64,000 nt of DNA from Coriobacteriia bacterium (GCA_963930185.1 CAWVLT010000047.1:2134-66133); one strand, 5' to 3'; positions 4,432-53,382 are shown, counted from the first letter of the stretch. The notes: generated by a model not told the origin, from the letters alone. Numbers and translations are program-made.

Positions 4432-4443
4432 GATAGACATTCA

Positions 4444-4485
4444 AAAGGCACCCGTTCGACGACTTCGAGCGGGTGCCTTTGCTTT
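4444..4485 (+). terminator. Hairpin terminator after the tRNA-Ser pair
   Basis: AAAGGCACCCG ... CGGGTGCCTTT stem followed by GCTTT. Confidence 0.5.
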
Positions 4486-4532
4486 GCAGTGGGTATCATG
4501 TGCGATGTTTGCCAACCGTCCGATTGGAGCAG

Positions 4533-6324: not shown

Positions 6325-6326
6325 CC

Positions 6327-7331: not shown

Positions 7332-7384
7332 CGACCGGGATAGTTCACGGCCCTGCGAAATACGTCGACGCCGCGTTTCGGCAC

Positions 7385-7431
7385 GCCGGTAGCCTGCCAT
7401 GCCCTTGCGGCAGCGGGCTACCGGCGTTTTT
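7385..7431 (+). terminator. Rho-independent terminator after pstA
   Basis: Stem CGCCGGTAGCC ... GGCTACCGGCG followed by TTTTT, about 54 nt after the pstA stop. Confidence 0.7.
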
Positions 7432-8144
7432 GCTGGTGCGCGGGCATCGTCTGCTGGCGCATATGAGGCCGCACCGCGAGCGAGGTAGGGAGAGCCAGTG
7501 CCATGGGCCTCTGCGCGGGGCACCATTGCGTGGATCCGAGTCAAATTTGGCAAAAGAAGCCGAGGTTGTACGATCGGAGGCGCACAGGCGGCGTGCCCTG
7601 TTGGCAACCTTGTTGACGATCTGCGGAAAATAGCAGGTAATCAGGGGCGTGGGGAACAAGAAGAGTCATCAGCGACAACGTGCCTGCGCAAGAATCGGTG
7701 TGAAATCGTACAACCTGGGGGTTTTATGCCAGGGCCAGGCGTTTGGTGCGCAGGTTCGGGTGTGGTTGGCTTGCGATGACATGGCTGGCGATGGGCCAGA
7801 TCGATGGACGAGAACGCTGCGGCACCTGCGTCGACTTGTGTCGCTGATGCGCACAAAACGTAAGCTGCATGCATGGCCAGATCAGGCGCGGATGGAAAAG
7901 CAGCAGGTAGATGGGGTGAGACGCCCCGGCTCGTAACGCTGGGCGCAGGCAAGCGCAAGCGGAGTGTAAGCGCTGATTAGCGCAGCGTAACGTTCGGGCC
8001 ACGAGCATCCGCTCGGGCGCTTGAGCGACTATTCTTCGCAGTGAGCATGCCGCGGGGCCCGAAAAAGCGTCGCGGGAGGCTCGCACGAATTTACGCGCAT
8101 TGACGACCTTATGTGAAGTCACTCGAAAGAAAGGGACGTTTACC

Positions 8145-9122: not shown

Positions 9123-9194
9123 GCGAGCAGCGCGCTAGGGGGGGATCCCCGGCGCTCCCGACCGCCCCGTCGCGCCCGAGCGGCGCACCGACAG

Positions 9195-9238
9195 ACCCCG
9201 ATCGCCCGAATGCCGGGCGGTCGGGGTTGTGCGTTTTC
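9195..9238 (+). terminator. Hairpin terminator after pstS
   Basis: Stem ACCCCGATCGCCCG / CGGGCGGTCGGGGT followed by TGTGCGTTTTCG. Confidence 0.5.
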
Positions 9239-9464
9239 GCGCCGTTGTGGGCATCGCGTGACCTTGAGCTTGGCGCGTTTTCAAATCGACGGTGCTGAGC
9301 AGCCTGTTTGCCGTCTGACGAGGTCGTGGTCGGGCCGTCGTCAGGGTCGAGGCAGACATAGGGCGCCCGGATGGCGTAGCCTGACCGTGCGGACGTGCGT
9401 CAAGGGAGAGGCGCGCCGGGGCGGGGCACTAGGTGTGGAAACGTCGTGGCACACAAAAACGTGC

Positions 9465-9493
9465 TTGTTTCCACGCAAGGGGCAGGGTAGAGT
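9465..9493 (+). promoter_or_regulatory. Candidate sigma-70-type promoter of the rpsF operon
   Basis: TTGTTT - 17 nt - TAGAGT, about 75 nt upstream of the rpsF ATG. Confidence 0.35.
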
Positions 9494-9568
9494 TAATCGG
9501 TCATTCCCTGCTCCGGGCGTATGCCTTCATGAGACCCGGAGCCACTTTAGCCCAGAGGAGGTGACATC

Positions 9569-9868
9569 ATGAAGGCTTACGAACTGCTGTTCTTTGTGAA
9601 CCCGTCCATCACCGACGAGGCTCGCGCTGGCGTTATGAAGAGGATCGACACCGCCATTACCGAGAACGGTGGCGTCATCGATGACGTCGATTCCTGGGGC
9701 AAGCGCAAGCTTGCTTTCCCGATCGACAAGCTCACCGAGGGCGACTACACCCTGATCAACTTCCACACCGAGCCGACTTCCATCGCCGAGCTGGACCGCA
9801 TCCTGCGCATTTCCGACGACGTGATCCGTCACATGATCGTTCGTCGCGACGACAAGGACGCGGCGTAA
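9569..9868 (+). CDS. rpsF: 30S ribosomal protein S6
   Basis: MKAYELLFFVNPS...DSWGKRKLAFPIDK..GDYTLINF. SD GAGGAGG upstream. Conserved rpsF-ssb-rpsR order. Confidence 0.95.
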   Translation: MKAYELLFFVNPSITDEARAGVMKRIDTAITENGGVIDDVDSWGKRKLAFPIDKLTEGDYTLINFHTEPTSIAELDRILRISDDVIRHMIVRRDDKDAA

Positions 9869-38559: not shown

Positions 38560-38930
38560 GATCTCTCTCCTTAGTCGTGCGTTCGGACGGTGCTTTGGCC
38601 GGGGCATGGCCCAAGGTGGGCCGTGCGGCTTGCGAGTTGCGCCCGAGACGCTGGAACAGTGAGCACACCGTGCCATCCTAGGCTGCAAGTGTTTCGCGCG
38701 GTCGCTCGTTGCGCGCAAAGCTCCGAAAACACGAATGCGCCACGTTGTGAGAGTCGCGCTGCGAGCCGCTGTCTTGTTGGTCGCCGTGCTGGGCCGCCGC
38801 GCCGCCGGGCGCCATGCCGGGGCCGTCGGGACGGGGCGGTTTGCGTGACACGTCCTGCCCGCAACGGGTACACTGCATCTTGCGGCGCGGGCGCGCGCCT
38901 GGTCATCTACAAGCGAGGATAGGAGCTCCC

Positions 38931-39140
38931 ATGAGCAACAAGGGCAAGAGGGTCAAGGTCCACTACGTCGGCACGCTCGACGACGGCACCCAGTTCGACA
39001 GCTCCCGCGATCGCGGCGAGCCCATCGAGTTCACCTGCATGGCGCGGCAGATGATCCCCGGCTTCGACCGCGCGGTCGAGGAGATGCAGGTTGGCGAGGT
39101 CCGCGACATCCACCTGGAGCCCAAGGACGCCTACGGCGAG
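38931..39140 (+). repeat. Direct repeat copy 1 (FKBP 5' half)
   Basis: Hand alignment with 41728..: 105 of the first 120 nt are identical. Confidence 0.8.
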
Positions 39141-39452
39141 CGCGACCCCAAGAAGACCGTGCGCGTGGACACGGGCGAGTACCTCTACTTCTACGACGAG
39201 AACGACAAGCCCATCTCCATGACCCTCAAGACGGCCGAGCACGGCAAGGCGCATTTCATCGGCACCAAGGACCCCGGGCGCGTGATCGACGTCGCGGTGG
39301 GGGAGGTCCACAAGATCATCGCCCGCACGCACGGCAAGGCCGAGGTGCCGGTGATCGCCGCCAAGAACGGCAAGGTCGACTTCGACGTGAACCGTCGCCT
39401 TGCCGGCAAGGCGCTGAACTTCAACATCGAGCTTCTCGAGGTGGAGGAGTAG
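38931..39452 (+). CDS. FKBP-type peptidyl-prolyl isomerase, SlyD-like, divergent paralogue with enlarged insert-in-flap region
   Basis: ORF trimmed to ATG 38931. KVHYVGTLDDGTQFDSSRDRGEPIEFTCMARQMIPGFDRAVEEMQVGE; C-terminus LAGKALNFNIELLEVEE. Confidence 0.85.
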   Translation: MSNKGKRVKVHYVGTLDDGTQFDSSRDRGEPIEFTCMARQMIPGFDRAVEEMQVGEVRDIHLEPKDAYGERDPKKTVRVDTGEYLYFYDENDKPISMTLKTAEHGKAHFIGTKDPGRVIDVAVGEVHKIIARTHGKAEVPVIAAKNGKVDFDVNRRLAGKALNFNIELLEVEE

Positions 39453-39556
39453 AAGGGCGAGCTGGTGGGCTGCCTGACTGGGGCGGCGAGTCACTTGGCG
39501 ATCAGCCAGACAGGCGGGCGCCACGCGGCGTGAGGGCATGACGGGAGGTCGACAGC

Positions 39557-41563
39557 ATGGCCGAGATCATCACTAGGCGCCTTAGGAAGGCCAGGGGTGC
39601 GGCCGCGCGCTGGGCCCTGTATGCCGCGAAGGCCGCCCTTCTGGTTGGGGTCTTATATGCCCTGGGGCATTATGCCGGCACGCTGCCGCCGGCCGTCATC
39701 GCCGTGGCATGGGCCGTGCTGAGCGCCGCCTCGATGCTGGGCATGGCCTACCACCACGTGGTGAGAAAGACGCTCAAGCAGTACGCCTACGAGGCTGACG
39801 GCCGCCTCTCGAAGCTCAACAACGGCCGCTCGGTGTGCCTCATCGTGGCGTTTCTCGTCTCGGCGGTCTTCGTCGCGAGTCTTATGCTCGAAGTCCCGAA
39901 ATGGGGCGCGCTCGAATGGGGCATCACCGGTGCGGGTGCGCTGGCGTACCCGCTCGTGTTCCTGCTCGCCCGTCGGCTCCTGAGGGGCGAGTATCGGCCG
40001 GCGTTTCGCGCCTCGAAGGCGGTGTGGTGGAGCACCCTAGTCGTGGGGGCCCTTCTCTGCGCCGCCTATCTGGCGACCTGTCTCACCCAGCCAGCGGGGG
40101 AGTTCGACAGCGCGGCGGAGGCCTTCGACTCGGTCGCGCGGCCCTTTGAGGGCTCCCCGTCGGCGCTCATGCGCGAGGCCGACCTGCTTACGGCGTTCGG
40201 CGACGGCCTCGTGGCCTTTGGCATCTCGAAGGCCGCCGAGACGTCGGGCGCGCTGTATGTCGTGCTGAGGGTCGCGCTGGGCGCCTCCGCGTTTTTCGGT
40301 GTCGCGAGTCTGCTGGGCGTGTGCGCCCTTGGGTGGCCCGAGCTCAGGCGCGTATTCCTTCCGCTTGAGTCGGGCGTGGACGATGGCGAGGGGCTGTCGG
40401 CGCAGGCGGCGGGCGTTGACGCGGGCGAGCGTGTTGACGCGGGCGAGCGCGCTGACGCGGGTGCGGGCGCGGACACTGGTGCGGGCGCCGATGGGGACGT
40501 GCGCGCCGATGTGGGTACCGCCGGCGCCGGCCGCGCCCTCCTGAAGGGCAGCGTGGCCCTTGTCGTCGCGCTGCCCGTCGTGCTGGCCGCGTCATTTCTG
40601 GTCGCGGACGCCACTGCCGCCAGGCTCGAGCAGGCCGAGGAGTACACTGTCGCCGAGCGCTTCGTGCGCGACCAGGTGGGCCTGGCCGTGTTCGTCCTCG
40701 ACGGCAAATACTACGACCAGGCGGCGGCCGAGGCCCTGCTCGCCGAGGCGCAGGAGGAGTCGGCGGCCCTCGCCGAGGAGGCCACCGCGACGCTCGCCCC
40801 GCTTATCAACGCGTCCTTTGACGCCCGCCTGGCCAACGTGGACGGGTATCTGGACTGGTACTACAGCCTTTTCGCCGACTACGAGCGGCTTCTCACCATG
40901 ATCACCGGCACGGTCGAGGACTACATGGCCGACCAGTTCGTCGCGAACATCGAGAAGGGCGTTGACGACACGGCGCTCGAGAGTGCGCTCCAGGGCTATG
41001 TCGAGCAGGCCGCCGCACTCAAGGAGGACGTGACGCAGCGCCTCGCCCAGCTCGAGATAACGGGCGTTCCCGAATGGCTTCTCACCGAGCAGGCCCCGCT
41101 CGATGCGGACTTCATGACCACGACCCTCGAGCCGAGCGAGCGCATCCTGAGCACGGGCGAGCGCTTTGGCATCAGCGCAGGCGCCGGTGCCGCTGCGGGC
41201 GTTGCGACCAAGCACCTCACAGGCACCGTTACCAATCGCTTCGCGAGTGCCGTTAGCGAGCGTCTCGAATCCAAGGCTGTCGAGAAGGAGTTCTTTAAGA
41301 AGTTCGTCTCAAAGGTGGCGGGCATTGTGGGCGGCCGCGCGGCGGGGACGGCCGTGGGCGGCGCCGTGGGGACGATCGCCGGCCCACTCGGGACAGCCGT
41401 GGGCGCCGTCGCGGGAACCGCCATCGGGGTGGGGGTCGATTACGGCATGCTCAAGTTCGACGAGTGGCGCAACCGCGAGTCGTACCGGGAGGAGATCGTC
41501 CAGACGATCGAGGACGAACGTGCGGAGATGCTCGCCGCGGTGCAGGGAGAGCAGACGCAGTAG
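39557..41563 (+). CDS. Hypothetical membrane protein: N-terminal TM bundle, low-complexity repeats, coiled-coil region, C-terminal glycine-zipper
   Basis: 5-6 N-terminal helices. VDAGER/ADAGAG hexapeptide repeats. Ala/Glu-rich helical stretch. GRAAGTAVGGAVGTIAGPLGTAVGAVAGTAIGVGV near the C-terminus. Confidence 0.6.
   Translation: MAEIITRRLRKARGAAARWALYAAKAALLVGVLYALGHYAGTLPPAVIAVAWAVLSAASMLGMAYHHVVRKTLKQYAYEADGRLSKLNNGRSVCLIVAFLVSAVFVASLMLEVPKWGALEWGITGAGALAYPLVFLLARRLLRGEYRPAFRASKAVWWSTLVVGALLCAAYLATCLTQPAGEFDSAAEAFDSVARPFEGSPSALMREADLLTAFGDGLVAFGISKAAETSGALYVVLRVALGASAFFGVASLLGVCALGWPELRRVFLPLESGVDDGEGLSAQAAGVDAGERVDAGERADAGAGADTGAGADGDVRADVGTAGAGRALLKGSVALVVALPVVLAASFLVADATAARLEQAEEYTVAERFVRDQVGLAVFVLDGKYYDQAAAEALLAEAQEESAALAEEATATLAPLINASFDARLANVDGYLDWYYSLFADYERLLTMITGTVEDYMADQFVANIEKGVDDTALESALQGYVEQAAALKEDVTQRLAQLEITGVPEWLLTEQAPLDADFMTTTLEPSERILSTGERFGISAGAGAAAGVATKHLTGTVTNRFASAVSERLESKAVEKEFFKKFVSKVAGIVGGRAAGTAVGGAVGTIAGPLGTAVGAVAGTAIGVGVDYGMLKFDEWRNRESYREEIVQTIEDERAEMLAAVQGEQTQ
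40415..40522 (+). repeat. Imperfect 18-nt tandem repeat (about 6 units) inside the CDS
   Basis: GTTGACGCGGGCGAGCGT / GTTGACGCGGGCGAGCGC / GCTGACGCGGGTGCGGGC / GCGGACACTGGTGCGGGC ... Confidence 0.75.
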
Positions 41564-41727
41564 GCCCGGTGGGCGGCGGGCCTGCGGAGGAGGCACGCGC
41601 CTTCGCATCGCCATTTCGCGCGCCGCCTCGCCAAAACCTGCCGAAGAGCGCTACACTTGTGCGCCGACGCACGACAGGCGCGCTGGCGCCAGACCCTATC
41701 AGCGTATTCGCGACGAAAGGACGCATC

Positions 41728-41937
41728 GTGAGCAACAAGGGCAAGAAGGTCAAGGTCCACTACACTGGCACGCTCGACGACGGCACCAAGTTCGACAGCT
41801 CCCGCGACCGTGGCAAGCCGATCGAGTTCACCTGTGGGGCTGGGCAGATGATCCCCGGCTTCGACCGAGCGGTGGACGAGATGCAGGTCGGCGAGGTGCG
41901 CGACGTGCACCTGGAGCCCAAGGACGCCTACGGCGAG
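41728..41937 (+). repeat. Direct repeat copy 2 (FKBP 5' half)
   Basis: See copy 1. The last ~50 nt of both genes are also near-identical. Confidence 0.8.
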
Positions 41938-42123
41938 CCCAACCCCGCCATGATGCTCAACGCCAAGGTGGGCCAGAAGCTCTACGTGTTCATGGGCAAT
42001 CGCCCTGTGCCGGTGACCATCACCAAGGCCGAGGGCGGCGAGGTCACCCTCGACGCCAACCACGAGCTCGCCGGCAAGGCGCTCAACTTCAACATCGAGC
42101 TCGTCGAGGTGGAGGGCGAGTAG
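41728..42123 (+). CDS. FKBP-type peptidyl-prolyl isomerase, compact SlyD-like
   Basis: GTG 41728. KVHYTGTLDDGTKFDSSRDRGKPIEFTCGAGQMIPGFDRAVDEMQVGE ... LAGKALNFNIELVEVEGE. Confidence 0.85.
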   Translation: MSNKGKKVKVHYTGTLDDGTKFDSSRDRGKPIEFTCGAGQMIPGFDRAVDEMQVGEVRDVHLEPKDAYGEPNPAMMLNAKVGQKLYVFMGNRPVPVTITKAEGGEVTLDANHELAGKALNFNIELVEVEGE

Positions 42124-42350: not shown

Positions 42351-42590
42351 ATGCTGCATGATGACGATCTCGGTGCAGTTTCTGGTGGAATTTCCCAGGG
42401 CGGGAGCGAGAAGTGCCCCCAGTGCGGGCAGCCGCTGCTGTTCAGCGGCGACCCCAACGGCTCGTGGCTCAAGCGCTGCATGGCGTGCGGGTACACGTGG
42501 AACTCCTTCCAGGAGGAGGAGAAGAACGCGAGCACGCCGTCGACCTCCGGAGATGCGTCCTTCTGGTATGACTTGGCTGGCCGGTTGTGA
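42351..42590 (+). CDS. Small Cys-rich peptide with double-glycine-type leader and CxxC...CxxC zinc-ribbon core (79 aa; alternative start 42295 gives 98 aa)
   Basis: ATG 42351 lies 5 nt after AAGAGGAGG. MLHDDDLGAVSGG then ISQGGSEKCPQCGQ...KRCMACGYTW. A terminator lies downstream at 42671..42732. Confidence 0.55.
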   Translation: MLHDDDLGAVSGGISQGGSEKCPQCGQPLLFSGDPNGSWLKRCMACGYTWNSFQEEEKNASTPSTSGDASFWYDLAGRL

Positions 42591-42732: not shown

Positions 42733-42887
42733 GTTTGGATGATATCGCGGATTCTGCACCTATTTCGCCTATTGAATATCACAAATTTTGTACCTATACT
42801 GCTTGTTAGATATCGCGGATTTTGGACAAACTTGCTGGTTATAGTAATAGTTTTAGAAGATTCGCAAATTATGGGTACGGTGGGCGT

Positions 42888-44258
42888 ATGTTTAGACGTA
42901 AGTGCTATGACAGATTGCTCGAGTGGAAACGTCTCTCTCATGGAACGAGCGCCATGCTCATAGAGGGTGCTCGTCGTGTGGGCAAGACCACGCTCGTGCG
43001 CGAGTTCGCGAAGAACGAATACGCCGACTTCCTTTATATAGACTTCTCCATGGTTGGAAACGACACCCTCGAGCTGTTCCGCAGCCAAAGGGAAGACATA
43101 GACACATTCCTGCGCATGCTTCAGCTTGCGTATGGGAAACGGCTTGAGGAGCGCAACAGCGTCGTCATCTTCGACGAGGTGCAGCGCTTCCCCCTTGCCC
43201 GCGAGTACGTGAAGCATCTCGTTGCCGATGGCCGGTTCGACTACATCGAAACGGGGTCGCTCATATCGATCAGGAAGAATGTTGAGGACATCGTGATTCC
43301 ATCTGAGGAGGACCGTCTCCCCCTTAATCCGATGGACTTCGAGGAATACCTCTGGGCGTGCGGGCAGGATGTGTATGCCGATGCCATACGCCAGGCATAC
43401 GAGGATCTGATGCCCTTGCCTGATGGCGTGCATGCAAAGGTCATGCGCCTGTTCGACGAGTACATGCTTGTGGGGGGAATGCCCCAATCGGTTGAGGCGT
43501 TCATCGAGACGAAAGACTTTGTCGCATGCGACAGGGCGAAGCGGAGGATTCTCAACCTATATCTTGACGACATGGTCAAATTCGGCGGGAGCGAGGCGCG
43601 CCGCGCGCGTGCTATCTTTCAGGCGATTCCAGGTCAGCTCTCGGCCGTATCCAAGAGATTCAAGTTCTCTGCTCTTGAGGCGGCCGAACGCTTTGAGGAT
43701 AACAAGACGGCCCTTGACTGGCTCGAAGATGCGCACATGGCAAACGTGTGCCGACTATGCACGGATCCAAACGTGGGACTACGCCTCGGCGAAGAGGTCA
43801 GCTCACTGAAATGCTACATGGCCGACACCGGGCTGTTGGTTTCTCATGCGTTCGCCGATGGGCCCCGGGCAATGGAGGTGCATCGCGACATCCAGTTTGG
43901 CAGGGTGTCCGTGAACAGGGGTATGCTGGTCGAAAACGTCGTTGCTCAGCAGCTAAAGGCCACAGGCCATTCTCTGTTCTACCACTCGTGGAATGAGGAC
44001 GGAGAGTCGCCCGGTGCCCGGCCACGTCCACGAGAGATCGACTTCCTGATTACGAGGGGCTTCTCGGGTGCGGCGGGGAAATTGAGGATTTGCCCAATCG
44101 AGGTGAAGTCCTCCAAGAGCTACCGGACCGTGTCGCTTGATGACTTCGGAAGGCGTTTTTTCAGACGTGTCGGAGACGAGGTCGTTCTCCATCCCAAGCA
44201 GCTCAGGGTGGAAGGATCGCGCCGATATCTGCCGCTTTACATGGCGCACTGCTTGTGA
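42888..44258 (+). CDS. AAA (AAA_14) + DUF4143-type ATPase of unknown function
   Basis: ORF 42822..44258 trimmed to ATG 42888. MLIEGARRVGKTTL P-loop; VVIFDEVQ Walker B; C-terminal REIDFLI..KLRICPIEVKSS. Confidence 0.75.
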   Translation: MFRRKCYDRLLEWKRLSHGTSAMLIEGARRVGKTTLVREFAKNEYADFLYIDFSMVGNDTLELFRSQREDIDTFLRMLQLAYGKRLEERNSVVIFDEVQRFPLAREYVKHLVADGRFDYIETGSLISIRKNVEDIVIPSEEDRLPLNPMDFEEYLWACGQDVYADAIRQAYEDLMPLPDGVHAKVMRLFDEYMLVGGMPQSVEAFIETKDFVACDRAKRRILNLYLDDMVKFGGSEARRARAIFQAIPGQLSAVSKRFKFSALEAAERFEDNKTALDWLEDAHMANVCRLCTDPNVGLRLGEEVSSLKCYMADTGLLVSHAFADGPRAMEVHRDIQFGRVSVNRGMLVENVVAQQLKATGHSLFYHSWNEDGESPGARPRPREIDFLITRGFSGAAGKLRICPIEVKSSKSYRTVSLDDFGRRFFRRVGDEVVLHPKQLRVEGSRRYLPLYMAHCL

Positions 44259-44480: not shown

Positions 44481-45821
44481 ATGATCGCACAGCGCATGCT
44501 TTCCACCGTGGTGCAGCTGCTCGGCAACAAGTACTTCAAGCTCGAGCCGACCGCCGACGCGCGCATCCCCGGCCCCCAGCCCGGCCACAAGTACATGCTC
44601 TACATGCACGTGCCGTTCTGCGAGGTGCTGTGCCCGTACTGCTCGTTCAACCGCTTCCCCTTCAGCTCCGAGCGCGCCGTGCCCTACTTCGAGCACATGC
44701 GCGAGGAGATGCGCATGCTGGCCGACATGGGCTACGAGTTCCACGAGGTCTACGTGGGCGGCGGCACCCCCACGGTCATGATGGACGAGCTTGCCAAGAC
44801 CATCGGCCTGGCCCGCGAGCTCTTTCCCATGATCGGTGACGTGTCAAGCGAGACCAACCCCAACCACCTGGTGCCTGGCTATCTCGAGGATCTCTCGAGC
44901 CTGGTGCAGCGCCTGTCGGTGGGCGTGCAGAGCTTCGACAACGGCCTGCTCAAGAAGATGGCGCGCTACAACAAGTACGGCAGCGCCGAGCAGATCATGG
45001 AGCGCATTCAGTCGGTGGCGCAGGCAAAGCTCTTTAAGTCGCTCAACGTGGACATGATCTTCAACTTCCCCGGCCAGACGCCCGAGATGATCGAGCACGA
45101 CATCGCCTGCGTCAAGGCGAGCGGTGCCAACCAGACCACGTTCTACCCGCTCATGGTCTCCCCGGCCAGCCGCGCCAGCATCGAGAAGACCGTGGGCAAG
45201 GTTGACTACAAAAACGAGGAGCGCTTCTATCACCAGATCTATGACGGCTTCTGCGGGGGCGACAACCCCGAGTTCCGGCCGAGCAGCTGCTACACGTTCA
45301 GCCGCGAGGAAGGCCAGATGATCGATGAGTACGTCGTGAACTACGAGGAGTACCCGGCCATCGGGTCGGGCGGCATCAGCTACCTGGACGGCACACTCTA
45401 CATCAACAGCTTCAGCCTGCGCGACTACGCGCGGCGCATCGACGAGGGCCACACCAGCGCCATGGCGCGCACGGTGTTCCCCAAGCGCGACGTGATGCGC
45501 TACCGCTTCATGATGGACCTGTTTGGCCTGTCCATCGACAAGCGCGCCTGGAAGGAGCGCTTTGGCTGCTCGGTCGCGGCCGGCCTGCCCGTGGAGTACG
45601 CGTTCATGAAGGTGAACGGCGCCTTCGACCGCGACGATGACGAGATGCTGACCCTCACGCCGCGCGGCCGCTACCTCATGGTGGTCATGATGCGGCAGTT
45701 CTTCATCGGCGTGAACAGCGTGCGCGACCAGGCCCGCGCCGCGCTTCCGGGCGACGAGCACGCGTTGATCTTCGGGGAGTGTCCCAGCGCTGACGGCTGT
45801 CCCGCCGGCGCGCGGCAGTAG
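44481..45821 (+). CDS. Radical SAM enzyme, HemN/HemW-like (coproporphyrinogen III oxidase family)
   Basis: ORF 44301..45821 trimmed to ATG 44481. CEVLCPYC (CxxxCxxC) cluster motif in MLYMHVPFCEVLCPYCSFNRF; VYVGGGTPT; ETNPNHL. No SPASM-like Cys cluster at the C-terminus. Confidence 0.8.
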   Translation: MIAQRMLSTVVQLLGNKYFKLEPTADARIPGPQPGHKYMLYMHVPFCEVLCPYCSFNRFPFSSERAVPYFEHMREEMRMLADMGYEFHEVYVGGGTPTVMMDELAKTIGLARELFPMIGDVSSETNPNHLVPGYLEDLSSLVQRLSVGVQSFDNGLLKKMARYNKYGSAEQIMERIQSVAQAKLFKSLNVDMIFNFPGQTPEMIEHDIACVKASGANQTTFYPLMVSPASRASIEKTVGKVDYKNEERFYHQIYDGFCGGDNPEFRPSSCYTFSREEGQMIDEYVVNYEEYPAIGSGGISYLDGTLYINSFSLRDYARRIDEGHTSAMARTVFPKRDVMRYRFMMDLFGLSIDKRAWKERFGCSVAAGLPVEYAFMKVNGAFDRDDDEMLTLTPRGRYLMVVMMRQFFIGVNSVRDQARAALPGDEHALIFGECPSADGCPAGARQ

Positions 45822-45875
45822 GCTCGCGCAAGCGGGGCGAGGGGCGGCGCAGGGGGCGCGAACGGGGGCGATGCG

Positions 45876-47156
45876 ATGTACGAGACGCTCGAGCGGCTTG
45901 TCAGGGCGCTTGCGGGCGGCAGCAGGAACGGCACGCTGAACTACCAGCCGGTCGAGGCGTGGGACGTGGGCGACGATCCGCTGCGAGTGACCTCGGGAGC
46001 GCTGTTCGCCGCGATGTTTCCCGAGCTGAGCGGCCGTGGCCGCCATCCAGCGCAGCTCTATCGCAACTATCCTCACGACCGCAGCCGCTTGTGCGTGGAG
46101 TTCGCCCGCCAGCAGGGGCTCAACGACTGGGAGAGCCCCTCGCCCATGCGCATCGCGCGCGTCGTGTACGAGATCGTTCTCTCCGCCGCCCCGCCCACGT
46201 TCTGGGCGAGCTGCAACGGGCTTGACCGGAGGGGCGACCCGTGGGCCTGCCAGCTGGTCACCTCCGAGCTCATCGAGGAGATGGCCGACGCGTTTCTCGC
46301 CCAGGGGGACGCCAAGGTGCGGGTGGAGTCGTTCAAGGCAAGTGCGACCGACCTGCGCGCGAAGGCCGCGGTTGAGATCGACGCGTGGTGCCGGGAACGC
46401 GCCCGCGTGCTTGGGGGCGCGCCCGCCGCGTCTGGCAAGACGTGGGAGAGCATGTGGGACCAGGTGGTGCGCGACAGCCGGCGCTGGCGGGAGATCGCGG
46501 GCGACATGGTGGCGCACCTGCTGCTGAGCTGCCTGTGCGGGCCCGATGCATACCGCACCGAGCTCGTCTCGGCGTCCCGGGCGTGCGGCCGCGCCGGCGA
46601 CGCGCTGGCAGCGCTGCGCACGCGCGCCCCCTCGGCAGACGCGGCCTGCCCTCTCTCGGGGGCACGGGCGGATGCGGACGCAGCGCCTGCGGGCCGCTGG
46701 TCACTCGAGGTCGTGCACTTCGACCGGGGCGTCTGCGGGTACTCGACCGAGGGCATGTCGTATGGGTACGCCGCCGGCGACTGCGTGTGGGTGGGGCGCG
46801 ACGTCGAGGTGTACGGCGAGGGTGGGGTCGCCAACATCGTGACGAGCAACGCCTGGGTGAGCAAGCGCCATGCCCGGATCGCGAGCGGTTCCGCCCCGGG
46901 CGGGGGCGTGGCGTGCGTGCTGGACGACGTTTCCAGCGGCGGCACGCTCATCCTCAGAAACCTCGGCTCGCTGGATGGCTCGCCCTGCGAGGCGCTGCCG
47001 GTGGGGGAGCGCTTCTCGGGGCCGGGGGATGGGGCCGTGCGGTCGCTTCCGCTCCAATCGGGCGACGTCATTGTGTTCGGGCCGCGCGTCGAGACGCGGG
47101 AGGTTCGCTTCATCCCGACCGGTCTGGAGTTCGCCCTGAGGTTCGTGGCGCGCTAA
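45876..47156 (+). CDS. FHA-domain protein with ~300-aa unrecognised N-terminal domain
   Basis: C-terminal VWVGRDVEV...NAWVSKRHARI...LDDVSSGGTLILRN...LQSGDVIVFG fits the FHA pattern (GR...SR.HA...NGT..N). Confidence 0.7.
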   Translation: MYETLERLVRALAGGSRNGTLNYQPVEAWDVGDDPLRVTSGALFAAMFPELSGRGRHPAQLYRNYPHDRSRLCVEFARQQGLNDWESPSPMRIARVVYEIVLSAAPPTFWASCNGLDRRGDPWACQLVTSELIEEMADAFLAQGDAKVRVESFKASATDLRAKAAVEIDAWCRERARVLGGAPAASGKTWESMWDQVVRDSRRWREIAGDMVAHLLLSCLCGPDAYRTELVSASRACGRAGDALAALRTRAPSADAACPLSGARADADAAPAGRWSLEVVHFDRGVCGYSTEGMSYGYAAGDCVWVGRDVEVYGEGGVANIVTSNAWVSKRHARIASGSAPGGGVACVLDDVSSGGTLILRNLGSLDGSPCEALPVGERFSGPGDGAVRSLPLQSGDVIVFGPRVETREVRFIPTGLEFALRFVAR

Positions 47157-47245
47157 ACTGTCACGTGCGGCGCGTGCGCCTCGCACGGGCGCGGCGCATG
47201 TCGATGGGAGGGCGCGGCAGGCCGGCGTGCCGGGGAGGGAGTGCC

Positions 47246-48790
47246 ATGCAGGGGACGTACATCGTCGAATCGGCCGAGTGCGCCGAGGCGCGGCCGGGCG
47301 GGCGCTATGAGCTGGGGCGGCCCGTCGGCGAGGGCAGCTGTGGAAGGACGTTCGAGGTCGTCGGGACGGGCGAGCCCTACGTGGTCAAGCTATTCGTCGG
47401 CGCGCCTGCCGGCCTGTTGCCCGTGGCCGCGCAGGGCGACGCGCGCGCCCTGCGCGACAACGAGGTGCGCAAGCTCATGCCCCTGCGGGAGCAGGCCATC
47501 GGGGCCGCCGACGCCGCACACTTCCCCCAGCTCCACTCGACGGGCGTGGTGGTCTCGGGCGACGCGGCGGGGATGCCGGCGTTCATGATGAGCAGGATGC
47601 GCGGCCGCGCCCTGTCGGGGTGCGTCGACGAGCTGTCAGGGGCCATCGGCGGCGTGCCCACCGCCCAGGCGCTGCTCGCGCTGCTGCGCTGCGCCCTGCG
47701 CCCGCTGGCGGTTCTCGAACGCGTGGGCATCGTCCACGGCGACTTGAACCTGGGAAACGTCTTCGTCGAGCTGGCCGAGGGCCCCGACGGCGCCGCGCAG
47801 CCCGTCTGGGTCGGACTCGTGGACCTGGGGGCGGCGCGGGGCGCGGGGCTGCTCACGACGCGCACGGGCGTGCCGAGCGTGCATGGGGCGGCCGCGTTCA
47901 CCGCCCCGGAGATACTCGATCCAGAAAGCGAGTACCACGAGGCGTACCACAAGGACCCCCGCGCCAACGTGTGGGCGCTGGCGTCTCTCGTCTACTATCT
48001 CAGGACCAGGCGGCCCTACATCGCCCACACGAGGCTGCGCCTGGGCGAGGCGAAAGGTGACGAGCCGGCGGCGCGCGCCCTGCTGGCCGAGGCCCTGACG
48101 ACGTGCCTGAGCGTTGATCCTCGCCGGCGCATGGGGGCGCGCGAGCTCATGGGGTATGTCGAGGCGCGCCATCCGCGCCCCACCTCGCCCGAGTCGCTGG
48201 CCACCGCACCCGCTACGCCTGCTCCCGACTCGCGGGACGAGGGGCGGCGCGTACCGATGGCGCAGGCCGGCGCCGCCCTGTACTCGGACGGGACGCTCGT
48301 GCTGGGTGGCGCCGACCTTGCCTCCTGCCGTGACGGCGCGACGCTCGAGAGGGCGTGGGACCTCTCCGCGCTCGAGGCCGACCCGGCTGCCGTGCCGTGG
48401 GGCTCGCACGCCCACGGGGTGCGCCGAGTGGTCTGCGAGGCTCCGGTTGCGCCCACGAGCACGCGGGGCTGGTTTGCGAACATGGACGGCTGCGAGTCGA
48501 TGGACCTGTCACGCCTGGACTTCTCGCGCGTGTACGACGCAACGCGCATGTTCTCCGGGTGCGGCGCCCTGAGCGAGCTCGCGGGGCTCGACGCCTGGGA
48601 CACGTCCTCCCTGGAGTGCGCCGACCACATGTTCGCCGGCTGTCTGAGGCTGCCCCGCTCCGTCGTCTCCGACCTCGAACGCTGGGACGTCGGGCGGCTC
48701 AAGAGCAGCCTGGGCATGTTCACCGGCGCCGCCGCCTCGCTCGAGAAACCCCGGTTCTGGAGCACGAAGTACGGACGCTCCTTCATCTGA
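47246..48790 (+). CDS. Hanks-type Ser/Thr protein kinase fused to C-terminal DUF285/BspA-like leucine-rich repeats
   Basis: Part of ORF 46385..48790; start set at ATG 47246 behind GGGGAGGGA (47198 also possible). GEGSCGRTFEV..YVVKLF, IVHGDLNLGNVFV, VDLGAA, FTAPE. C-terminus MFSGCGALSELAGLDAWDTSSLECADHMFAGCLRL. Confidence 0.8.
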   Translation: MQGTYIVESAECAEARPGGRYELGRPVGEGSCGRTFEVVGTGEPYVVKLFVGAPAGLLPVAAQGDARALRDNEVRKLMPLREQAIGAADAAHFPQLHSTGVVVSGDAAGMPAFMMSRMRGRALSGCVDELSGAIGGVPTAQALLALLRCALRPLAVLERVGIVHGDLNLGNVFVELAEGPDGAAQPVWVGLVDLGAARGAGLLTTRTGVPSVHGAAAFTAPEILDPESEYHEAYHKDPRANVWALASLVYYLRTRRPYIAHTRLRLGEAKGDEPAARALLAEALTTCLSVDPRRRMGARELMGYVEARHPRPTSPESLATAPATPAPDSRDEGRRVPMAQAGAALYSDGTLVLGGADLASCRDGATLERAWDLSALEADPAAVPWGSHAHGVRRVVCEAPVAPTSTRGWFANMDGCESMDLSRLDFSRVYDATRMFSGCGALSELAGLDAWDTSSLECADHMFAGCLRLPRSVVSDLERWDVGRLKSSLGMFTGAAASLEKPRFWSTKYGRSFI

Positions 48791-49885
48791 GGTCGTCGGG
48801 CGGGGCGTGGCGTCCCCAGGTGCGCTGGCCGTGCCGTCGCTTTCGCCTGCGTCGGCGCACCCATCGGTCGCGGGGGCCTCCTCGCCCTGCTCGCCTGGCT
48901 CCTGCACCATGGATGGGTAGGCCCTAGCGTCCCACTTGCGCTTGAGGCGACCCCAGTCCGGCTCGGCCAGCGTCCACGCCCGCGGCGCGGCGAGAGCCGC
49001 GTCGGCGTTGACGATGGCGGCCACGGAGCGGTCGTCGTACACGTCGCGCAGCAGGCTGTAGGCCCAGCCGTTGCGGATGACGCCGTCGAGCAGCTCGTCG
49101 GCGAGGGGGCCCGCCCCAAGGCGTTGCTCGTACACGCGGCGCAGGCGCGACCAGAACGCATCGGGCGAGAAGGTGGCGGGGCTGTCGAGCAGCGCCACCG
49201 CGCCCCTCGCGTCATCCTCGGTGAACGCTGCCGGGTCGGCGAGCCACAGGGCCAGCGGTGTGTAGACGGTCTCGCTCTCGTCGGGGAGGGGATCCCCGCA
49301 GCGCAGCAGGTAGGGCCTGAGAGCGGCGAGCACGCCGTCGGTCGCGAGCAGCACGCCTACCAGGGGCGTCTTGCACACGCCGATTTCCCAGGTGTCGCAG
49401 CCAAAGCGCAGAGGGATGACCGAGGTCCCATCCTCGCCGTGGTGCGCGACCGTCACGGGGATCGTCGCGCCGTCGGCCGTGATGCCAACGATGCCGGAGT
49501 CACCGGCGTGACCGTAGTACAGGCGCCGCTCCTGCGCGTCGTAGAGGCCGAGCGTCAGCGTGGTGTCGTACGTCTCGAGGGGCTCCCCGCTGTGCCGCGC
49601 CTCGCGGGCAACGGCCCCCAGCGCGTGCTCGAACGCGAGCATGATGAGCGAGCACAGCGCGACGGGCCTGCGCTCGTGGGGCAGGTGCTCCCTGCAGAAG
49701 CCCAGCGCGGCCGACCCGGCGATGCGCGACCCTGCCGCCGAGTTGGGGGCGCTGCCCACGCCGTCGCTGACCACGGCGAGGTACCAGCGCTCGTCAATCC
49801 CCTCGGTGCCGCTCCAGTCCTGGCATTCCGTCCCGTTCACGGCATGCAGGGTTCCTCGGACGCTACGACAATACGTGTGGATCAT
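48509..49885 (-). CDS. PP2C-family Ser/Thr protein phosphatase
   Basis: NGTECQDW...YLAVVSDGVGSAPNS, GHAGDSGIVG, VLLATDGV. The last ~93 codons are antisense to the kinase gene's 3' end; no stop occurs before 48509. Confidence 0.8.
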   Translation of the reverse strand: MIHTYCRSVRGTLHAVNGTECQDWSGTEGIDERWYLAVVSDGVGSAPNSAAGSRIAGSAALGFCREHLPHERRPVALCSLIMLAFEHALGAVAREARHSGEPLETYDTTLTLGLYDAQERRLYYGHAGDSGIVGITADGATIPVTVAHHGEDGTSVIPLRFGCDTWEIGVCKTPLVGVLLATDGVLAALRPYLLRCGDPLPDESETVYTPLALWLADPAAFTEDDARGAVALLDSPATFSPDAFWSRLRRVYEQRLGAGPLADELLDGVIRNGWAYSLLRDVYDDRSVAAIVNADAALAAPRAWTLAEPDWGRLKRKWDARAYPSMVQEPGEQGEEAPATDGCADAGESDGTASAPGDATPRPTTSDEGASVLRAPEPGFLERGGGAGEHAQAALEPPDVPAFEVGDDGAGQPQTAGEHVVGALQGGRVPGVEPRELAQGAAPGEHARCVVHAREVQA

Positions 49886-49894
49886 CGTGACTCC

Positions 49895-50659
49895 CTAGAG
49901 GTTGGCGTACCAGGCATTGGGGATGGGGCGCTCCACGACCTCGAGCGCCTCGGGCAGCGGGGCGACCTGCGGCGTGGTGCCGGTGTGCGTGACGCTGATG
50001 ACCTTGGTGTTCTGCGCCAGCCACTTGAAGAACTCCGAGTAGTCGTGGTTGGCGAGCCTGAGCACGCGCGGGGTCAGGTCGAGGGCGACCGTCTCGGAGA
50101 AGCCGGGCGTGCCGATGAACCACGTGGCAAGACGGCCGTCCGCCTCGCGCTGGTGCGCCAGGGCGAACGCCTCCTTGTACTCGTCGGTGGGGGCGCCGTC
50201 GGAGATGACGACGACCCAGGGCGTGTGCTTGGGCGTGCCCATGTCGTCGTACATGTGCCCGCGCTCGATCGTCATGGTCACGGCCTTCTTCACGCCCGCC
50301 CCCATGGGCGTGCAGCCGCTGGCCTGCAGACGCGGCGCCTCGGACTGGCACACGGGGCGGAAGTCCTGCACGGTCTTGACCTCGTCGGAGCCGCCGAAGG
50401 TCACGATGGCCAGATCGGCGCGCCGGCGGGCGTACTGGTCGGATTTGACCGCGTCGATGAACTCGCCGACGGCGACGTTGATGTCGTCGATGTGAGCCGA
50501 GACCGACGAGGACACGTCGACGAGCAGAAGGATGGCGAAGTGCGTCTCGGTGGGGCTCACGGGCGGCAGCGCCAGGCCTGCGGTGCGCGGCGAGATCCCC
50601 TCGGGATAGGCGTCCTCGTAGATGGGGGTGACTTCGTAGGAATCGTAGGCGTTGCTCAT
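49895..50659 (-). CDS. von Willebrand factor A (vWA) domain protein, TerY-like
   Basis: ORF trimmed to ATG 50659 behind GAAAGGAAG. MIDAS LLLVDVSSSVS; AIVTFGGS; VVVISDGAPTD. The stop lies 9 nt before the PP2C start. Confidence 0.8.
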   Translation of the reverse strand: MSNAYDSYEVTPIYEDAYPEGISPRTAGLALPPVSPTETHFAILLLVDVSSSVSAHIDDINVAVGEFIDAVKSDQYARRRADLAIVTFGGSDEVKTVQDFRPVCQSEAPRLQASGCTPMGAGVKKAVTMTIERGHMYDDMGTPKHTPWVVVISDGAPTDEYKEAFALAHQREADGRLATWFIGTPGFSETVALDLTPRVLRLANHDYSEFFKWLAQNTKVISVTHTGTTPQVAPLPEALEVVERPIPNAWYANL

Positions 50660-50923
50660 GGTGCGCTTCCTTTCGCGTCGTGCCGCGGGGCCTTGCCCGC
50701 CGGCGTCCTTGCGTGCTTGGTACGACACGGATGGTAGGCGCGGGCGAGTGTTCGCGTAAAAGGGCGCTGTGCGCAAAGCGCCGCGTGACGAGTGCCACCG
50801 CCACGTCTAGGCTGCATGGCAGGTTGGCCCCGTCGCGCGCCGGCCGGCCTGCCATGCGGATGCCCGGCGCGTGGGGGCGATATGAGGAAGGCCACGCGTT
50901 GAGCCATATGGTCTGGAGGCGCC

Positions 50924-52342
50924 ATGTCCGCAACGAGCGGGTTCGTGAGATACAGGGGTGCGAGCGGGCGTTCGTACGAGCTTGCGGCGAAGCCCTTCAA
51001 CAGCGGTGCGGAGGCCGAGGTGCTTGACGTGCGCGGCAGGCCCGACCTCGTCGCCAAGGTGTACTTCAAGCCGCTCGGCGCGCGCAGGCGCAAGGTCGAG
51101 GCCATGGTGCGCTCGGTGCCTGACAAGGACATGCAGGCCCACCTTGCTTGGCCGCTCGACGCGCTGTATCGCCCGGACGGCGCGTTTGCGGGATTTGTCA
51201 TGAGGCGCTGCGCGGCCAACGGGATCGAGCTGGGCATGCTCTACGAACCCGCCGACGCCCGCGCCCATGGGTTTGACTTTGGCAAGCAGCTGGGAGTCGC
51301 CGGCATGCTGAGCGACATCACCGCGTGCCTGCATGCGCGTGGCGTGTGCATCGGCGACTTCAACCCCCGCAACGTGTTGGTATTCCTGGAGGCGCGGGGC
51401 CTTGACCTCGCCGTCATCGACAACGACTCGTTTGCCTTTGCCGACGCGGGCGGCTGCTCCTACCCGTGCCTGGGGTGGACGCCCGAGTTTTCCGCGCCCG
51501 AGGTGCATGCCGCGGCGGCGGGCGGGGCGAGAGACTTTGGCCACAGCATCGAGGGCGACAGGTTCGCGCTTGCCGTGCACGTCTTCAAGCTCCTGATGGC
51601 GGGCTGCCACCCGTTCGACACCCGGCTCGTGGATCGGTCGGCCAAACGTCCCAGCACGGAGGAGGCCATCAGGCAGGGCGTCTTCGTGTACGAGCGCCCT
51701 GTGCGCGGGCTCGCCGCCCCGCTGCATGCCCCCGAGTACGGTTATCTGCCCAAGGACGTTCGTCGGCTGTTCGCCCGTGCCTTCCTTGGAAAGCCGCACG
51801 AGCGCCCGACGGCGCGCGAGTGGTGCCAGGCGCTGGAGCGCATGGCGGCGGGCGGCCTTTCGAGCTGCCCGCGGGGACATCGCTACCCCAGCTCGGCCGC
51901 CACATGCCCATGGTGTGACCTGGAGGCGCGCAGGGCGAAGGCGATGGGCAGGTACGTCGCCGCCACGGCAACGAAGGCGAGTCGCGCTGGTGCGCGTGGC
52001 GGGGCGGGCTCTCGCGGAAGTACCCGCGCCGCAGGTACCTCGTCGGGCCCGGCCCGTGCGACGGGCATGCCCTCGTCCGGTGGAAGGGCCGCCGCCAGAC
52101 CGGGGACACGCCGCCGCCTGATCGCCTGGTGCCTCGGCATCCTGCTGGTGCTCGGGACACTCAACAGCTGCGTGTCGGGGATGTCGGTGGACCTGCACGC
52201 CCCCTCGCAGGACGGCGCGGATGTCGGCGCGCAGCAGGGGGCGATAGCAGGTCAGCCGTCACCTGATCAGGCAGACCAGGCAACGGCCGACGCGGGTCAC
52301 GCACGGACTGTCATCGAGACGATCATCACGCCAAGCGGGTGA
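50924..52342 (+). CDS. Atypical Ser/Thr kinase (YegI-like) with zinc-ribbon-like motif, low-complexity linker and one C-terminal TM helix
   Basis: ATG behind TGGAGG. LVAKVYF, CIGDFNPRNVLV, VIDNDSF, FSAPEV, DRFALAVHVFKLLM. CPRGH...CPWC. TM LIAWCLGILLVLGTL. Confidence 0.7.
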   Translation: MSATSGFVRYRGASGRSYELAAKPFNSGAEAEVLDVRGRPDLVAKVYFKPLGARRRKVEAMVRSVPDKDMQAHLAWPLDALYRPDGAFAGFVMRRCAANGIELGMLYEPADARAHGFDFGKQLGVAGMLSDITACLHARGVCIGDFNPRNVLVFLEARGLDLAVIDNDSFAFADAGGCSYPCLGWTPEFSAPEVHAAAAGGARDFGHSIEGDRFALAVHVFKLLMAGCHPFDTRLVDRSAKRPSTEEAIRQGVFVYERPVRGLAAPLHAPEYGYLPKDVRRLFARAFLGKPHERPTAREWCQALERMAAGGLSSCPRGHRYPSSAATCPWCDLEARRAKAMGRYVAATATKASRAGARGGAGSRGSTRAAGTSSGPARATGMPSSGGRAAARPGTRRRLIAWCLGILLVLGTLNSCVSGMSVDLHAPSQDGADVGAQQGAIAGQPSPDQADQATADAGHARTVIETIITPSG

Positions 52343-52350
52343 CGGCGCTG

Positions 52351-53382
52351 CTACTCCTCGGGCATCTCGCGCTGCAGCTTGCGCTGGCGCTCCACGTGGG
52401 CGAGGTCCTCGGCCTCGATGAAGATGCGTGTGGTCTGGGGGAAGCGTGCTGAAAGCGCCGCCTCGATGCGGTCGACGGCTGCGAGCACCTCGTCGCCGGA
52501 GAGGCCCGGCTTGAACTTGGCGTCCACGGTCATGAGCATGCTCTCCGGGCCGAAGTACATCGTGAGCACCCGTCCGGTCTCGGCAACCGCATCCTCGGCC
52601 TCGACGATGCCGCGGGCCTCCACAAGCTCGGCGCGCGTCATGCCCTCGCCCACGAGCAGGCCCTTGGACTCGCGCAGCATCACCACGGCCACGCACATCA
52701 GCAGAAGGCCGATGAGGATCGAGGCGATGCCGTCGAGGTAGGGGTTGCCCGTGAGATGCCCCAGGAACAGGCCGAGCAGGGCGAACACCAGGCCGAGCTC
52801 GGCGGCGCTGTCCTCGAGCAGCACGGTGTAGAGGCTGGGGTCCTTGCAGTCCTTGATGAACTGCATGGGGCTCTTCTCGCCGCGCGCGGCGTTGAACTGC
52901 TTCACGGCCACGGCCAGCGAGGTGCCCTCGATGATCATGGCGGCGATGAGCACGATGTAGCTCATGGTGGGGTCGCCCAGCTCGACGGTGCCGGCCGCCG
53001 CGTCGCGCACCGCCTGGATGCCCTTCATGAGCGAGACGCCGCCGCCCAGCGCGAACACCGAGACGGACACCACGAGCGTCCAGAAGTAAAGCTCCTTGCC
53101 AAAGCCAAAGGGGTGCTCGATGGTGGGCTTCTTCTTGGAGGAGCGCAGGCCCCACAGCACCAGCATGCCGTTGCCCGAGTCCACGATGGAGTGGATGCCC
53201 TCGGAGATCATGGCCGCCGATCCGGAGATGCCCGCGGCGATGAACTTGACGATGCCCACCAGGATGTTCGCGGCGATTGCGGCGAACACCGAGGCGGTCG
53301 ATCCGTGCCCGCCGTTCTTGGCGGGCTGGCTATCGCCCGAGGCGGGCGCTGCTGTGGTTGTCATTGGTGCTGGCTCGGCCAT
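52351..53382 (-). CDS. Cation diffusion facilitator (CDF) family metal efflux transporter
   Basis: Six TM helices. SAAMISEGIHSIVDSGN and ELGLVFALLG segments. Cytoplasmic C-terminal domain. Confidence 0.85.
   Translation of the reverse strand: MAEPAPMTTTAAPASGDSQPAKNGGHGSTASVFAAIAANILVGIVKFIAAGISGSAAMISEGIHSIVDSGNGMLVLWGLRSSKKKPTIEHPFGFGKELYFWTLVVSVSVFALGGGVSLMKGIQAVRDAAAGTVELGDPTMSYIVLIAAMIIEGTSLAVAVKQFNAARGEKSPMQFIKDCKDPSLYTVLLEDSAAELGLVFALLGLFLGHLTGNPYLDGIASILIGLLLMCVAVVMLRESKGLLVGEGMTRAELVEARGIVEAEDAVAETGRVLTMYFGPESMLMTVDAKFKPGLSGDEVLAAVDRIEAALSARFPQTTRIFIEAEDLAHVERQRKLQREMPEE

Follow-up and report, generated by a model that had tools for sequence, protein, structure and literature searches.

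A five-gene island of about 6.5 kb was found in a 64,000-nucleotide stretch of DNA from a Coriobacteriia bacterium (GCA_963930185.1, CAWVLT010000047.1:2134-66133; herein referred to as the window). Its open reading frames (ORFs), read with the help of the GC content at third codon positions (GC3), occupy positions 45876-52342, and all five adjacent genes encode proteins of Ser/Thr signalling. In the reading that we prefer, the island is one horizontally acquired unit that fuses two modules. Module A would be a TerY-P trio, consisting of a YegL-type vWA protein with an intact metal-ion-dependent adhesion site (MIDAS), a PphC-type PP2C phosphatase, and a membrane-anchored YegI-type zinc-ribbon kinase (kinase 2) turned to a divergent orientation. 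Module B would include a soluble Hanks-type kinase with a DUF285 domain (kinase 1) and a protein that joins an N-terminal domain (N-domain) to a putative phospho-threonine reader, the FHA domain. Together, the two modules would form a threonine switch in which one phosphatase serves two kinases and the FHA protein is the adaptor, likely related to biological conflict. We assign this reading a probability of about 0.5; confidence in the architecture is high, and confidence in the function is modest.

The five phospho-signalling genes and their positions had been listed in a preliminary description of the same DNA, and all of its domain calls were recovered by Pfam searches and by homology to YegL and YegI. 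Thus, the FHA reader with an unrecognised N-domain, the Hanks kinase, the PP2C phosphatase, the vWA protein with an intact MIDAS, and the atypical second kinase with a zinc ribbon and one transmembrane segment were each found again, and the distances given for the vWA-PP2C gap (9 nt) and for the divergent spacer (264 nt) were exact. The proposed TerY-P, or YegL-PphC-YegI, identity of the vWA, PP2C and kinase 2 genes agrees with their homology to the Escherichia coli proteins and to metagenomic trios. A "ligand-binding-type repeat domain" had been placed on the second kinase; this domain, DUF285, is in fact located on kinase 1.

Membership of the trio was analyzed against a survey of related loci. 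A profile scan of GTDB species representatives yielded at least 533 YegI-type kinase loci, 80 of which were fetched. Genes for a vWA protein, a PP2C phosphatase, and the kinase were found together in 58 of these 80 loci. All 58 complete trios are co-directional, and nearly all have the order vWA, PP2C, kinase. The closest relatives of the island vWA protein (31-37% identity) are all encoded within such co-directional trios of vWA, PP2C_2, and Pkinase genes. The island has a MIDAS-containing vWA of the YegL type, an adjoining PP2C, and a YegI-type kinase with a zinc ribbon, and the three genes are, judging from these sequence similarities, a genuine TerY-P trio. We call this trio rearranged because kinase 2 diverges from the vWA-PP2C pair, an orientation found in none of the 58 sampled trios. 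Genes for integrases, resolvases, and type IV secretion system coupling proteins recur beside the trios; a few defence genes (MzaA, DRT reverse transcriptase, and methyltransferases) were found there as well. Among the matches listed for 16 genes inserted inside trios were TPR proteins, a Tox-HNH-HHH nuclease with a SUKH-2 immunity protein, a Uma2 endonuclease-like protein, and a transglutaminase-like protein. In some trios (for example, L099, L106, L114, L119, and L125, in the series L092-L171) the inserts are located between the PP2C and kinase genes. For about 20 YegI-type kinases, most of them from cyanobacteria, neither a vWA nor a PP2C gene is nearby.

The vWA protein has 36% identity with YegL of E. 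coli (E = 3e-28) and contains the pattern DVSSS...T...D. Its matches to the Pfam families VWA and VWA_2 (E of about 1e-4) are slightly under the gathering scores; its relatives carry the JGI name YegL. The gene has the ribosome-binding site GAAAGGAAG. A scan of GTDB genomes for close relatives of this protein returned nothing, and in the phage collection only three weak matches were found, in unannotated faecal "Bacteriophage sp." contigs. At the level of PHROG families, the vWA protein matches phrog_28389 (E = 1e-27) and kinase 2 matches phrog_37888 (E = 2e-26); therefore, genes of these kinds are present in the genomes of phages or prophages too.

Kinase 2 matches Pfam Pkinase weakly (E = 3.8e-4, below gathering), and its assignment comes from homology. 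Over 326 aa, including the zinc ribbon (C..H..CPWC), it shares 29% identity with E. coli YegI (E = 3e-30), and it is kinase 2, not kinase 1, that matches the trio kinases (E = 4e-35 to the kinase of the L001 trio). In a four-sequence alignment of kinase 2 with YegI and two kinases from metagenomic trios, K45 (VAK), D145 (GD.N), D166 and D168 (IDxDS), and all four putative zinc ligands C315, H319, C328, and C331 are invariant. C-terminal to the zinc ribbon are a Ser/Thr/Arg-rich linker, a single hydrophobic segment, and a 54-aa acidic tail. The protein is short for its family (472 aa vs. mostly 550-870 aa for trio kinases) and is devoid of the second transmembrane segment and the C-terminal coiled-coil region of YegI-like proteins. 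Short trio kinases of 352-453 aa are encoded elsewhere too (for example, in L092, L095, L114, and L156). In the spacer between the vWA and kinase 2 genes, a 10-bp inverted repeat was observed (GCATGGCAGG at 50814-50823 and CCTGCCATGC at 50848-50857, with a 24-nt loop), which could be an operator or a hairpin in a 5' untranslated region. No match to a sigma-70-type consensus was found in this 264-nt spacer, and scans with promoter and terminator consensus sequences returned nothing useful.

The third component of the trio, the PP2C phosphatase, has a conserved core from residue 1 to about residue 338, followed by a lineage-specific, acidic tail of about 120 aa in which Ala, Gly, and Pro abound. 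Over residues 1-338 it is 38% identical to the trio PP2C of L094; with E. coli PphC, a member of the same Pfam family, it has 27% identity (E = 0.005). The frame has no stop codon before 48509, and the stop codon of kinase 1 is at 48790; therefore, the last 282 nt of the PP2C gene are antisense to the 3' end of the kinase 1 gene. The same open antisense frame is present in contig L088, at 80% nucleotide identity, where it runs 20 codons longer. This coding overlap is real. The two frames share codon position 2, and an antisense frame of this kind is the one most easily kept open in high-GC DNA. Substitutions in the overlap between the window and L088 number 28/19/32 by codon position, a distribution that does not tell a PP2C tail under selection from one that is not. 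The overlap leaves no space for terminators between the convergent genes, so their antisense transcripts are predicted to overlap.

Kinase 1 contains the motifs GEGSCG, VVK, HGDLNLGN, DLG, and APE, and matches both Pkinase (E = 2.3e-9) and DUF285 (E = 9.5e-9, or 1.4e-9 when this family is searched alone). The DUF285 domain is likely a protein-binding or sensor domain. No hydrophobic segment was found in the protein and no similarity to E. coli YegI was detected. A ribosome-binding site, GGGGAGGGAG, precedes the start codon at 47246. Only one non-self relative of kinase 1 was found, 68% identical, on L088, where the gene order is FHA, kinase 1, and then the PP2C tail.

The FHA domain scores above the Pfam gathering cutoff (E = 1.2e-4; 22.9 bits vs. 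20.7). Among its phospho-threonine-binding residues, G307-R308 and S329/H332 are present, and the NG motif is replaced by GG; a weak PDB profile match was found to the FHA structure 1uht (E = 0.043). Within 1.84 billion representative proteins, just two relatives of the whole FHA protein were found: a fragment of 82% identity, and P0016, the only full-length one (428 aa, 33% identity), in which conserved motifs are shared through the N-domain. This N-domain of about 275 aa had no match in Pfam even at E <= 10, none in NCBIfam, PADLOC, or PHROG, and no meaningful match to PDB sequences; we regard it as a very rare protein family, probably helical. Profile scans of GTDB genomes and of JGI metagenome contigs found no further members of the FHA-protein family, and no match was found in the plasmid collection.

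The contig carrying P0016, L091, is a distant, high-GC contig of 4.2 kb, and here the FHA/kinase-1 pair recurs with a PP2C at 25-35% identity. The gene order (2-2934) is a kinase-1-like Hanks kinase, a 254-aa PP2C_2/SpoIIE-type phosphatase, and the FHA-N-domain protein; the C-lobe of the kinase is 35% identical to that of kinase 1, and DUF285 is absent. An 88-aa protein with weak similarity to DUF6987 is encoded after the FHA-N-domain protein. No homologue of the FHA-N-domain protein or of kinase 1 was found in the 80 YegI-type loci, including the 58 complete trios. Likewise, FHA and Pkinase are not among the Pfam families recurrent in 150 genes flanking these trios (each in no more than 2 of the 150) and are absent among the matches listed for the 16 genes inserted inside trios. 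By sequence comparison, then, the FHA protein and kinase 1 make up a separate and extremely rare module.

Comparison of related contigs delimits the island. Nucleotide homology to L006, L015, L016, L008, and L018 stops at the 3' end of the gene for a HemN-like radical-SAM protein (45758-45814), and homology to L006 and L015 restarts at 52351-52361, at the stop codon of a cation-diffusion-facilitator (CDF) gene; therefore, the indel comprises exactly the five genes. All five have a GC content of 0.69-0.73, compared to about 0.65 in the flanks, and their high GC3 argues for coding. The five phospho-signalling genes thus behave as one insertion and are not a chance cluster. No integrase, flanking direct repeats, or att-like sites marking the island were seen, and neither a tRNA gene nor an Rfam match was found near it. 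The coordinates of the island and of its features are collected in Table 1.

Table 1. Features of the five-gene island, in coordinates of the window.
Feature	Position (nt)	Strand	Residues	Description
Whole accessory island	45822-52350			Five genes between the stop codon of the HemN-like gene (45821) and the stop codon of the cation-efflux gene (52351)
FHA protein	45876-47156	+	426 aa	N-domain and C-terminal FHA domain
FHA-protein N-domain	45876-46700	+	~1-275	No recognised family
FHA domain	46788-47081	+	305-402	Pfam FHA (PF00498); motifs GR308, S329-x-x-H332
Kinase 1	47246-48790	+	514 aa	Soluble Hanks-type Ser/Thr kinase with C-terminal DUF285
DUF285 repeat domain of kinase 1	48464-48745	+	407-500	Pfam
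PP2C_2-type phosphatase	48509-49885	-	458 aa	PF13672, E = 1.6e-23
Convergent overlap PP2C/kinase 1	48509-48790			282 nt; last 93 PP2C codons antisense to the 3' end of kinase 1, which codes for DUF285
TerY/YegL-type vWA protein	49895-50659	-	254 aa	MIDAS motif DVSSS
Divergent spacer vWA/kinase 2	50660-50923			264 nt; sequence read directly
Kinase 2	50924-52342	+	472 aa	Atypical Ser/Thr kinase of the YegI type
Kinase domain of kinase 2		+	~10-310	Homology
CHCC zinc ribbon of kinase 2	51866-51916	+	315-331	C315, H319, C328, C331
Transmembrane segment of kinase 2	52118-52186	+	~399-421	Hydropathy

The HemN-like protein points the window to uncultured gut Coriobacteriales/Coriobacteriaceae (identity up to 90%). 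A variable genomic context, a possibility raised in the preliminary description, was indeed found. The five genes adjoin HemN in none of the 80 related loci examined: the CDF gene directly follows HemN in L015, and a methyltransferase gene directly follows it in L008-L013 and L018. In L006, where HemN is 90% identical, the HemN-CDF slot (1616-9776) is occupied by other cargo, namely a PIN_3/DUF6364 toxin-antitoxin pair, a Schlafen-like AlbA_2-HTH protein, a LuxR regulator, and a TAT-signal protein. The HemN-CDF site is thus a variable hot spot. The island itself is present in same-lineage contigs, L087 (99% nucleotide identity), L086 and L089 (94%), and L088 (80%). All five genes together were found elsewhere only in the near-identical L087; of the island, the other three contigs each cover a part. 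Outside this lineage the five-gene combination is undocumented.

In the proposed mechanism, each kinase would autophosphorylate on threonine, kinase 2 with likely sites in its Ser/Thr-rich juxtamembrane linker. The single PP2C would hold both kinases off, as E. coli PphC acts on YegI. A trigger would then let phospho-threonine build up, and the FHA protein would be recruited to it. The output could come from the N-domain of the FHA protein, or the kinases could deliver it by phosphorylating targets of the cell or of a phage. The vWA MIDAS may provide a metal-dependent protein contact inside the complex; together with DUF285 of kinase 1, it is a candidate input or contact surface. The coupling of the two modules, the docking of the FHA protein, the trigger, and the output are all what we infer for such a switch. 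An anti-phage or conflict role would be its most likely biological function, and is favoured because relatives of the trio act on phages and because the island is accessory and located in a hot spot.

Several observations weigh against this reading. An effector domain, such as a nuclease, a pore-former, or an NADase, could not be recognised in the island, and no known defence gene was found within 10 kb of it in the window. The canonical FHA arginine is not kept in P0016. AlphaFold2 models of the FHA protein have low confidence (pLDDT of 34 from the single sequence and 49 from a four-sequence alignment), and a Foldseek search of the PDB with the model returned nothing below E = 0.26. No TerY-P model of PADLOC matches the vWA or PP2C protein, and kinase 2 matches only generic kinase models. 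The E. coli proteins YegL, PphC, and YegI and two metagenomic trios were equally negative in this search; therefore, the missing match rules out close kinship only and is weak evidence. In addition, the validated anti-phage TerY-P systems are of another branch; they are reported to have a kinase-OB-fold fusion (PMC11090510), and kinase 2 has a zinc ribbon instead. Finally, the coupling of the two modules is argued only from their co-insertion, the overlap, and the single phosphatase, and in L091 the FHA/kinase pair has a PP2C of its own and no visible vWA gene.

This last point leads to the alternative that two independent modules stand side by side in a variable slot, with the trio working alone and the FHA/kinase-1 pair uncoupled from it, which we consider possible but less probable. 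It fits L091, it fits the lack of FHA-N-domain and kinase-1 homologues in the sampled trios (0 of 58) and of recurrent FHA or Pkinase genes beside or inside them, and it fits a slot that gathers unrelated cargo, as in L006. The island, by contrast, has two kinases for one phosphatase; all five genes share the same raised GC content and together make up the whole indel relative to L015; and the PP2C/kinase-1 overlap, which persists at 80% nucleotide identity, interlocks the two modules. The preliminary description had spoken of an enlarged triad. The addition of an FHA protein and a second kinase stands, since neither was seen in or beside the 58 trios; the unity of the ensemble was overstated, since the pair is a module with its own PP2C in L091.

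A physiological switch for stress or metal sensing, with the vWA MIDAS as a metal sensor and no part in phage defence, seems unlikely to us. The original hypothesis saw in TerY-P a phosphorylation switch that responds to metals and is connected with tellurite resistance (Anantharaman et al., 2012, cited through PMC11090510), and the island has an intact MIDAS, a CDF cation-efflux gene ending 8 nt from kinase 2, and no effector or defence neighbour. A Deinococcus vWA-STPK-FHA-PP2C operon (STPK, Ser/Thr protein kinase) has moreover been tied to DNA-damage and oxidative-stress signalling (10.64898/2026.01.23.701218). The HemN-CDF adjacency is present in L015 without the island, however, so the CDF neighbour is an effect of the insertion site and not a conserved partnership; the island is accessory, as its absence from close relatives shows; and the TerY-P variants tested gave phage protection (PMC7699616; 10.1101/2022.08.12.503731). 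The earlier statement that no physiological role is established for such trios is therefore outdated: TerY-P-like trios defend E. coli and Pseudomonas aeruginosa against T7-like phages, the Autographiviridae (PMC7699616; PMC11090510; bioRxiv 10.1101/2022.08.12.503731).

It is also very improbable that the island is a decaying remnant, that is, a rearranged and non-functional cassette with an inverted kinase 2, a truncated C-terminus, and a read-through PP2C tail. Such decay could account for a kinase 2 of 472 aa where most have about 550-870 aa, with the second transmembrane segment and the coiled-coil C-terminal region gone, for a divergent kinase unique relative to the 58 trios, and for a PP2C frame without a stop before it enters kinase 1. 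All five ORFs are intact, however, with the catalytic, MIDAS, zinc-ribbon, and FHA motifs preserved; their high GC3 speaks for coding; the arrangement is undisrupted in contigs at 94% and 80% nucleotide identity; and other trios have short kinases as well. A further-reaching idea, which we hold to be quite unlikely, is that the FHA protein supplies the output that a TerY-P-type immune switch has lacked, the N-domain being a new effector or adaptor recruited by phospho-threonine on the kinases, and that DUF285 of kinase 1 senses a phage or foreign protein directly. If this were true, the island would be a natural two-input TerY-P system, exposing how the trio signals.

With the fused, conflict-related switch retained as the preferred reading, the island is of interest because TerY-P trios are widespread, given the at least 533 YegI-type kinase loci of the GTDB scan, and one is present in E. 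coli K-12. The added phospho-threonine reader and sensor-bearing kinase suggest that phospho-threonine-dependent recruitment may be part of TerY-P logic, and the island names candidate partners, namely the FHA protein with the kinases and the PP2C with both kinases. Its value is moderate, as the island is limited to a lineage of uncultured gut Coriobacteriaceae and the functional statements are conditional.

Other features of the window were observed outside the island. The upstream flank contains genes for FKBP-type isomerases, a 668-aa membrane protein, an AAA_14/DUF4143 ATPase, and the HemN-like protein; the downstream flank contains the CDF gene, an unknown gene, and genes for a methyltransferase and an SPFH protein. 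The AAA_14/DUF4143 ATPase gene (42822-44258, +), immediately upstream of the HemN-like gene, is located in a patch of low GC content (about 57% vs. 65%) and is broken up in the gene calls of L086 and L087; it is probably an insertion separate from the island. The two FKBP paralogues (38814-39452 and 41464-42123) are located on either side of the 668-aa multi-pass membrane protein, which belongs to no Pfam family (38814-42123 in total), and have a common 218-nt repeat of 89% identity (38932-39149 and 41729-41946). A small ORF (42351-42590, +; 79 aa; ribosome-binding site GAGGAGG), for which L086 and L087, contigs of the same species, also have a gene call, has a product beginning with MLHDDDLGAVSGG; this start resembles the leader of a double-glycine bacteriocin or of a ribosomally synthesized and post-translationally modified peptide and is followed by a CxxC...CxxC core. 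Two adjoining tRNA-Ser genes (anticodons GGA and CGA; 4204-4431, +) are the sole RNA genes detected in the window.

Anantharaman et al. (2012) defined the TerY-P system, in which a TerY-like vWA protein is combined with a PP2C and a Ser/Thr kinase, and are cited as proposing a phospho-switch that senses metals (PMC11090510). In E. coli, the corresponding genes are yegL-pphC(yegK)...yegI, with a YegL-type vWA protein of COG4245. All three proteins are homologous to those of the island trio, and the vWA gene is directly upstream of the PP2C gene in both. The E. coli genes are on one strand, with yegJ separating them, whereas the kinase of the island is divergent. The 648-aa YegI passes the membrane twice and has a long C-terminal region, unlike kinase 2 with its single transmembrane segment, and is an active, autophosphorylating membrane kinase that is dephosphorylated by PphC (bioRxiv 10.1101/819920, 10.1101/303594). 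Neither an FHA protein nor a second kinase is encoded in the E. coli locus; both are present in the island.

Kinase-OB-fold modules similar to TerY-P were reported as stand-alone anti-phage systems (Gao et al., 2020, as cited in PMC11090510), with activity aimed at T7-like phages according to a summary (PMC7699616). The Pseudomonas aeruginosa variant studied by Costa et al. protects against Autographiviridae, and most infected cells survive (bioRxiv 10.1101/2022.08.12.503731). These validated systems have the same three-part logic as the island trio and are likewise accessory or mobile cassettes; the FHA protein and second kinase of the island are not described for them in these sources. A kinase-zinc ribbon fusion, as in kinase 2, is found in the trios that belong to CoCoNuT systems of Types II and III-A, which are related to McrBC (PMC11090510). 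Membership in a CoCoNuT system was rejected, as no CnuB/C GTPase, McrC-like nuclease, CnuH helicase, or HEPN CnuE was found in the surrounding 20 kb.

The domain composition of the island has parallels elsewhere. In the threonine-phosphorylation pathway of the type VI secretion system (T6SS), the kinase PpkA, which has a vWA domain, acts with the PP2C phosphatase PppA and with Fha1 as a reversible phospho-threonine switch, and the FHA protein docks on a phosphorylated partner and triggers assembly. Domains of all four types, namely a Hanks kinase, a PP2C, an FHA reader, and a vWA, are present in the island too, a likeness that is an analogy only. In PpkA the vWA is a periplasmic domain of the kinase itself, whereas the island vWA is a separate cytoplasmic protein of the YegL type. 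Membership in this pathway was rejected, since no T6SS genes were found and no sequence relationship extends beyond the common domains. FHA proteins, PP2C, and Hanks kinases are clustered also in the actinobacterial FhaA/FhaB-PstP-RodA-PbpA-PknA/PknB locus, as in the island. The island has no RodA/FtsW or penicillin-binding protein (PBP) genes, and this assignment was rejected too; by ORF reading, L016 has a separate cluster of a PknB-like kinase, an FtsW/PBP-sized gene, and a PP2C, without a vWA or YegI-type kinase.

Another parallel in domain types that are encoded together is the Deinococcus radiodurans locus DRA0331-DRA0334, which includes a vWA protein, an STPK, an FHA protein, and a KI-FHA-PP2C. 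In this operon the FHA protein boosts phosphorylation by the kinase and the PP2C opposes it, a push-pull of the two on the kinases (bioRxiv 10.64898/2026.01.23.701218). The Deinococcus operon has features of its own, such as an 11-motif PPM phosphatase with a KI-FHA domain, a FraH-like FHA protein, a three-transmembrane kinase, and the link to DNA damage, and it is a functional analogue of the island, likened by description rather than by sequence. The island is an unusual form of a known signalling cassette and not a new kind of system.

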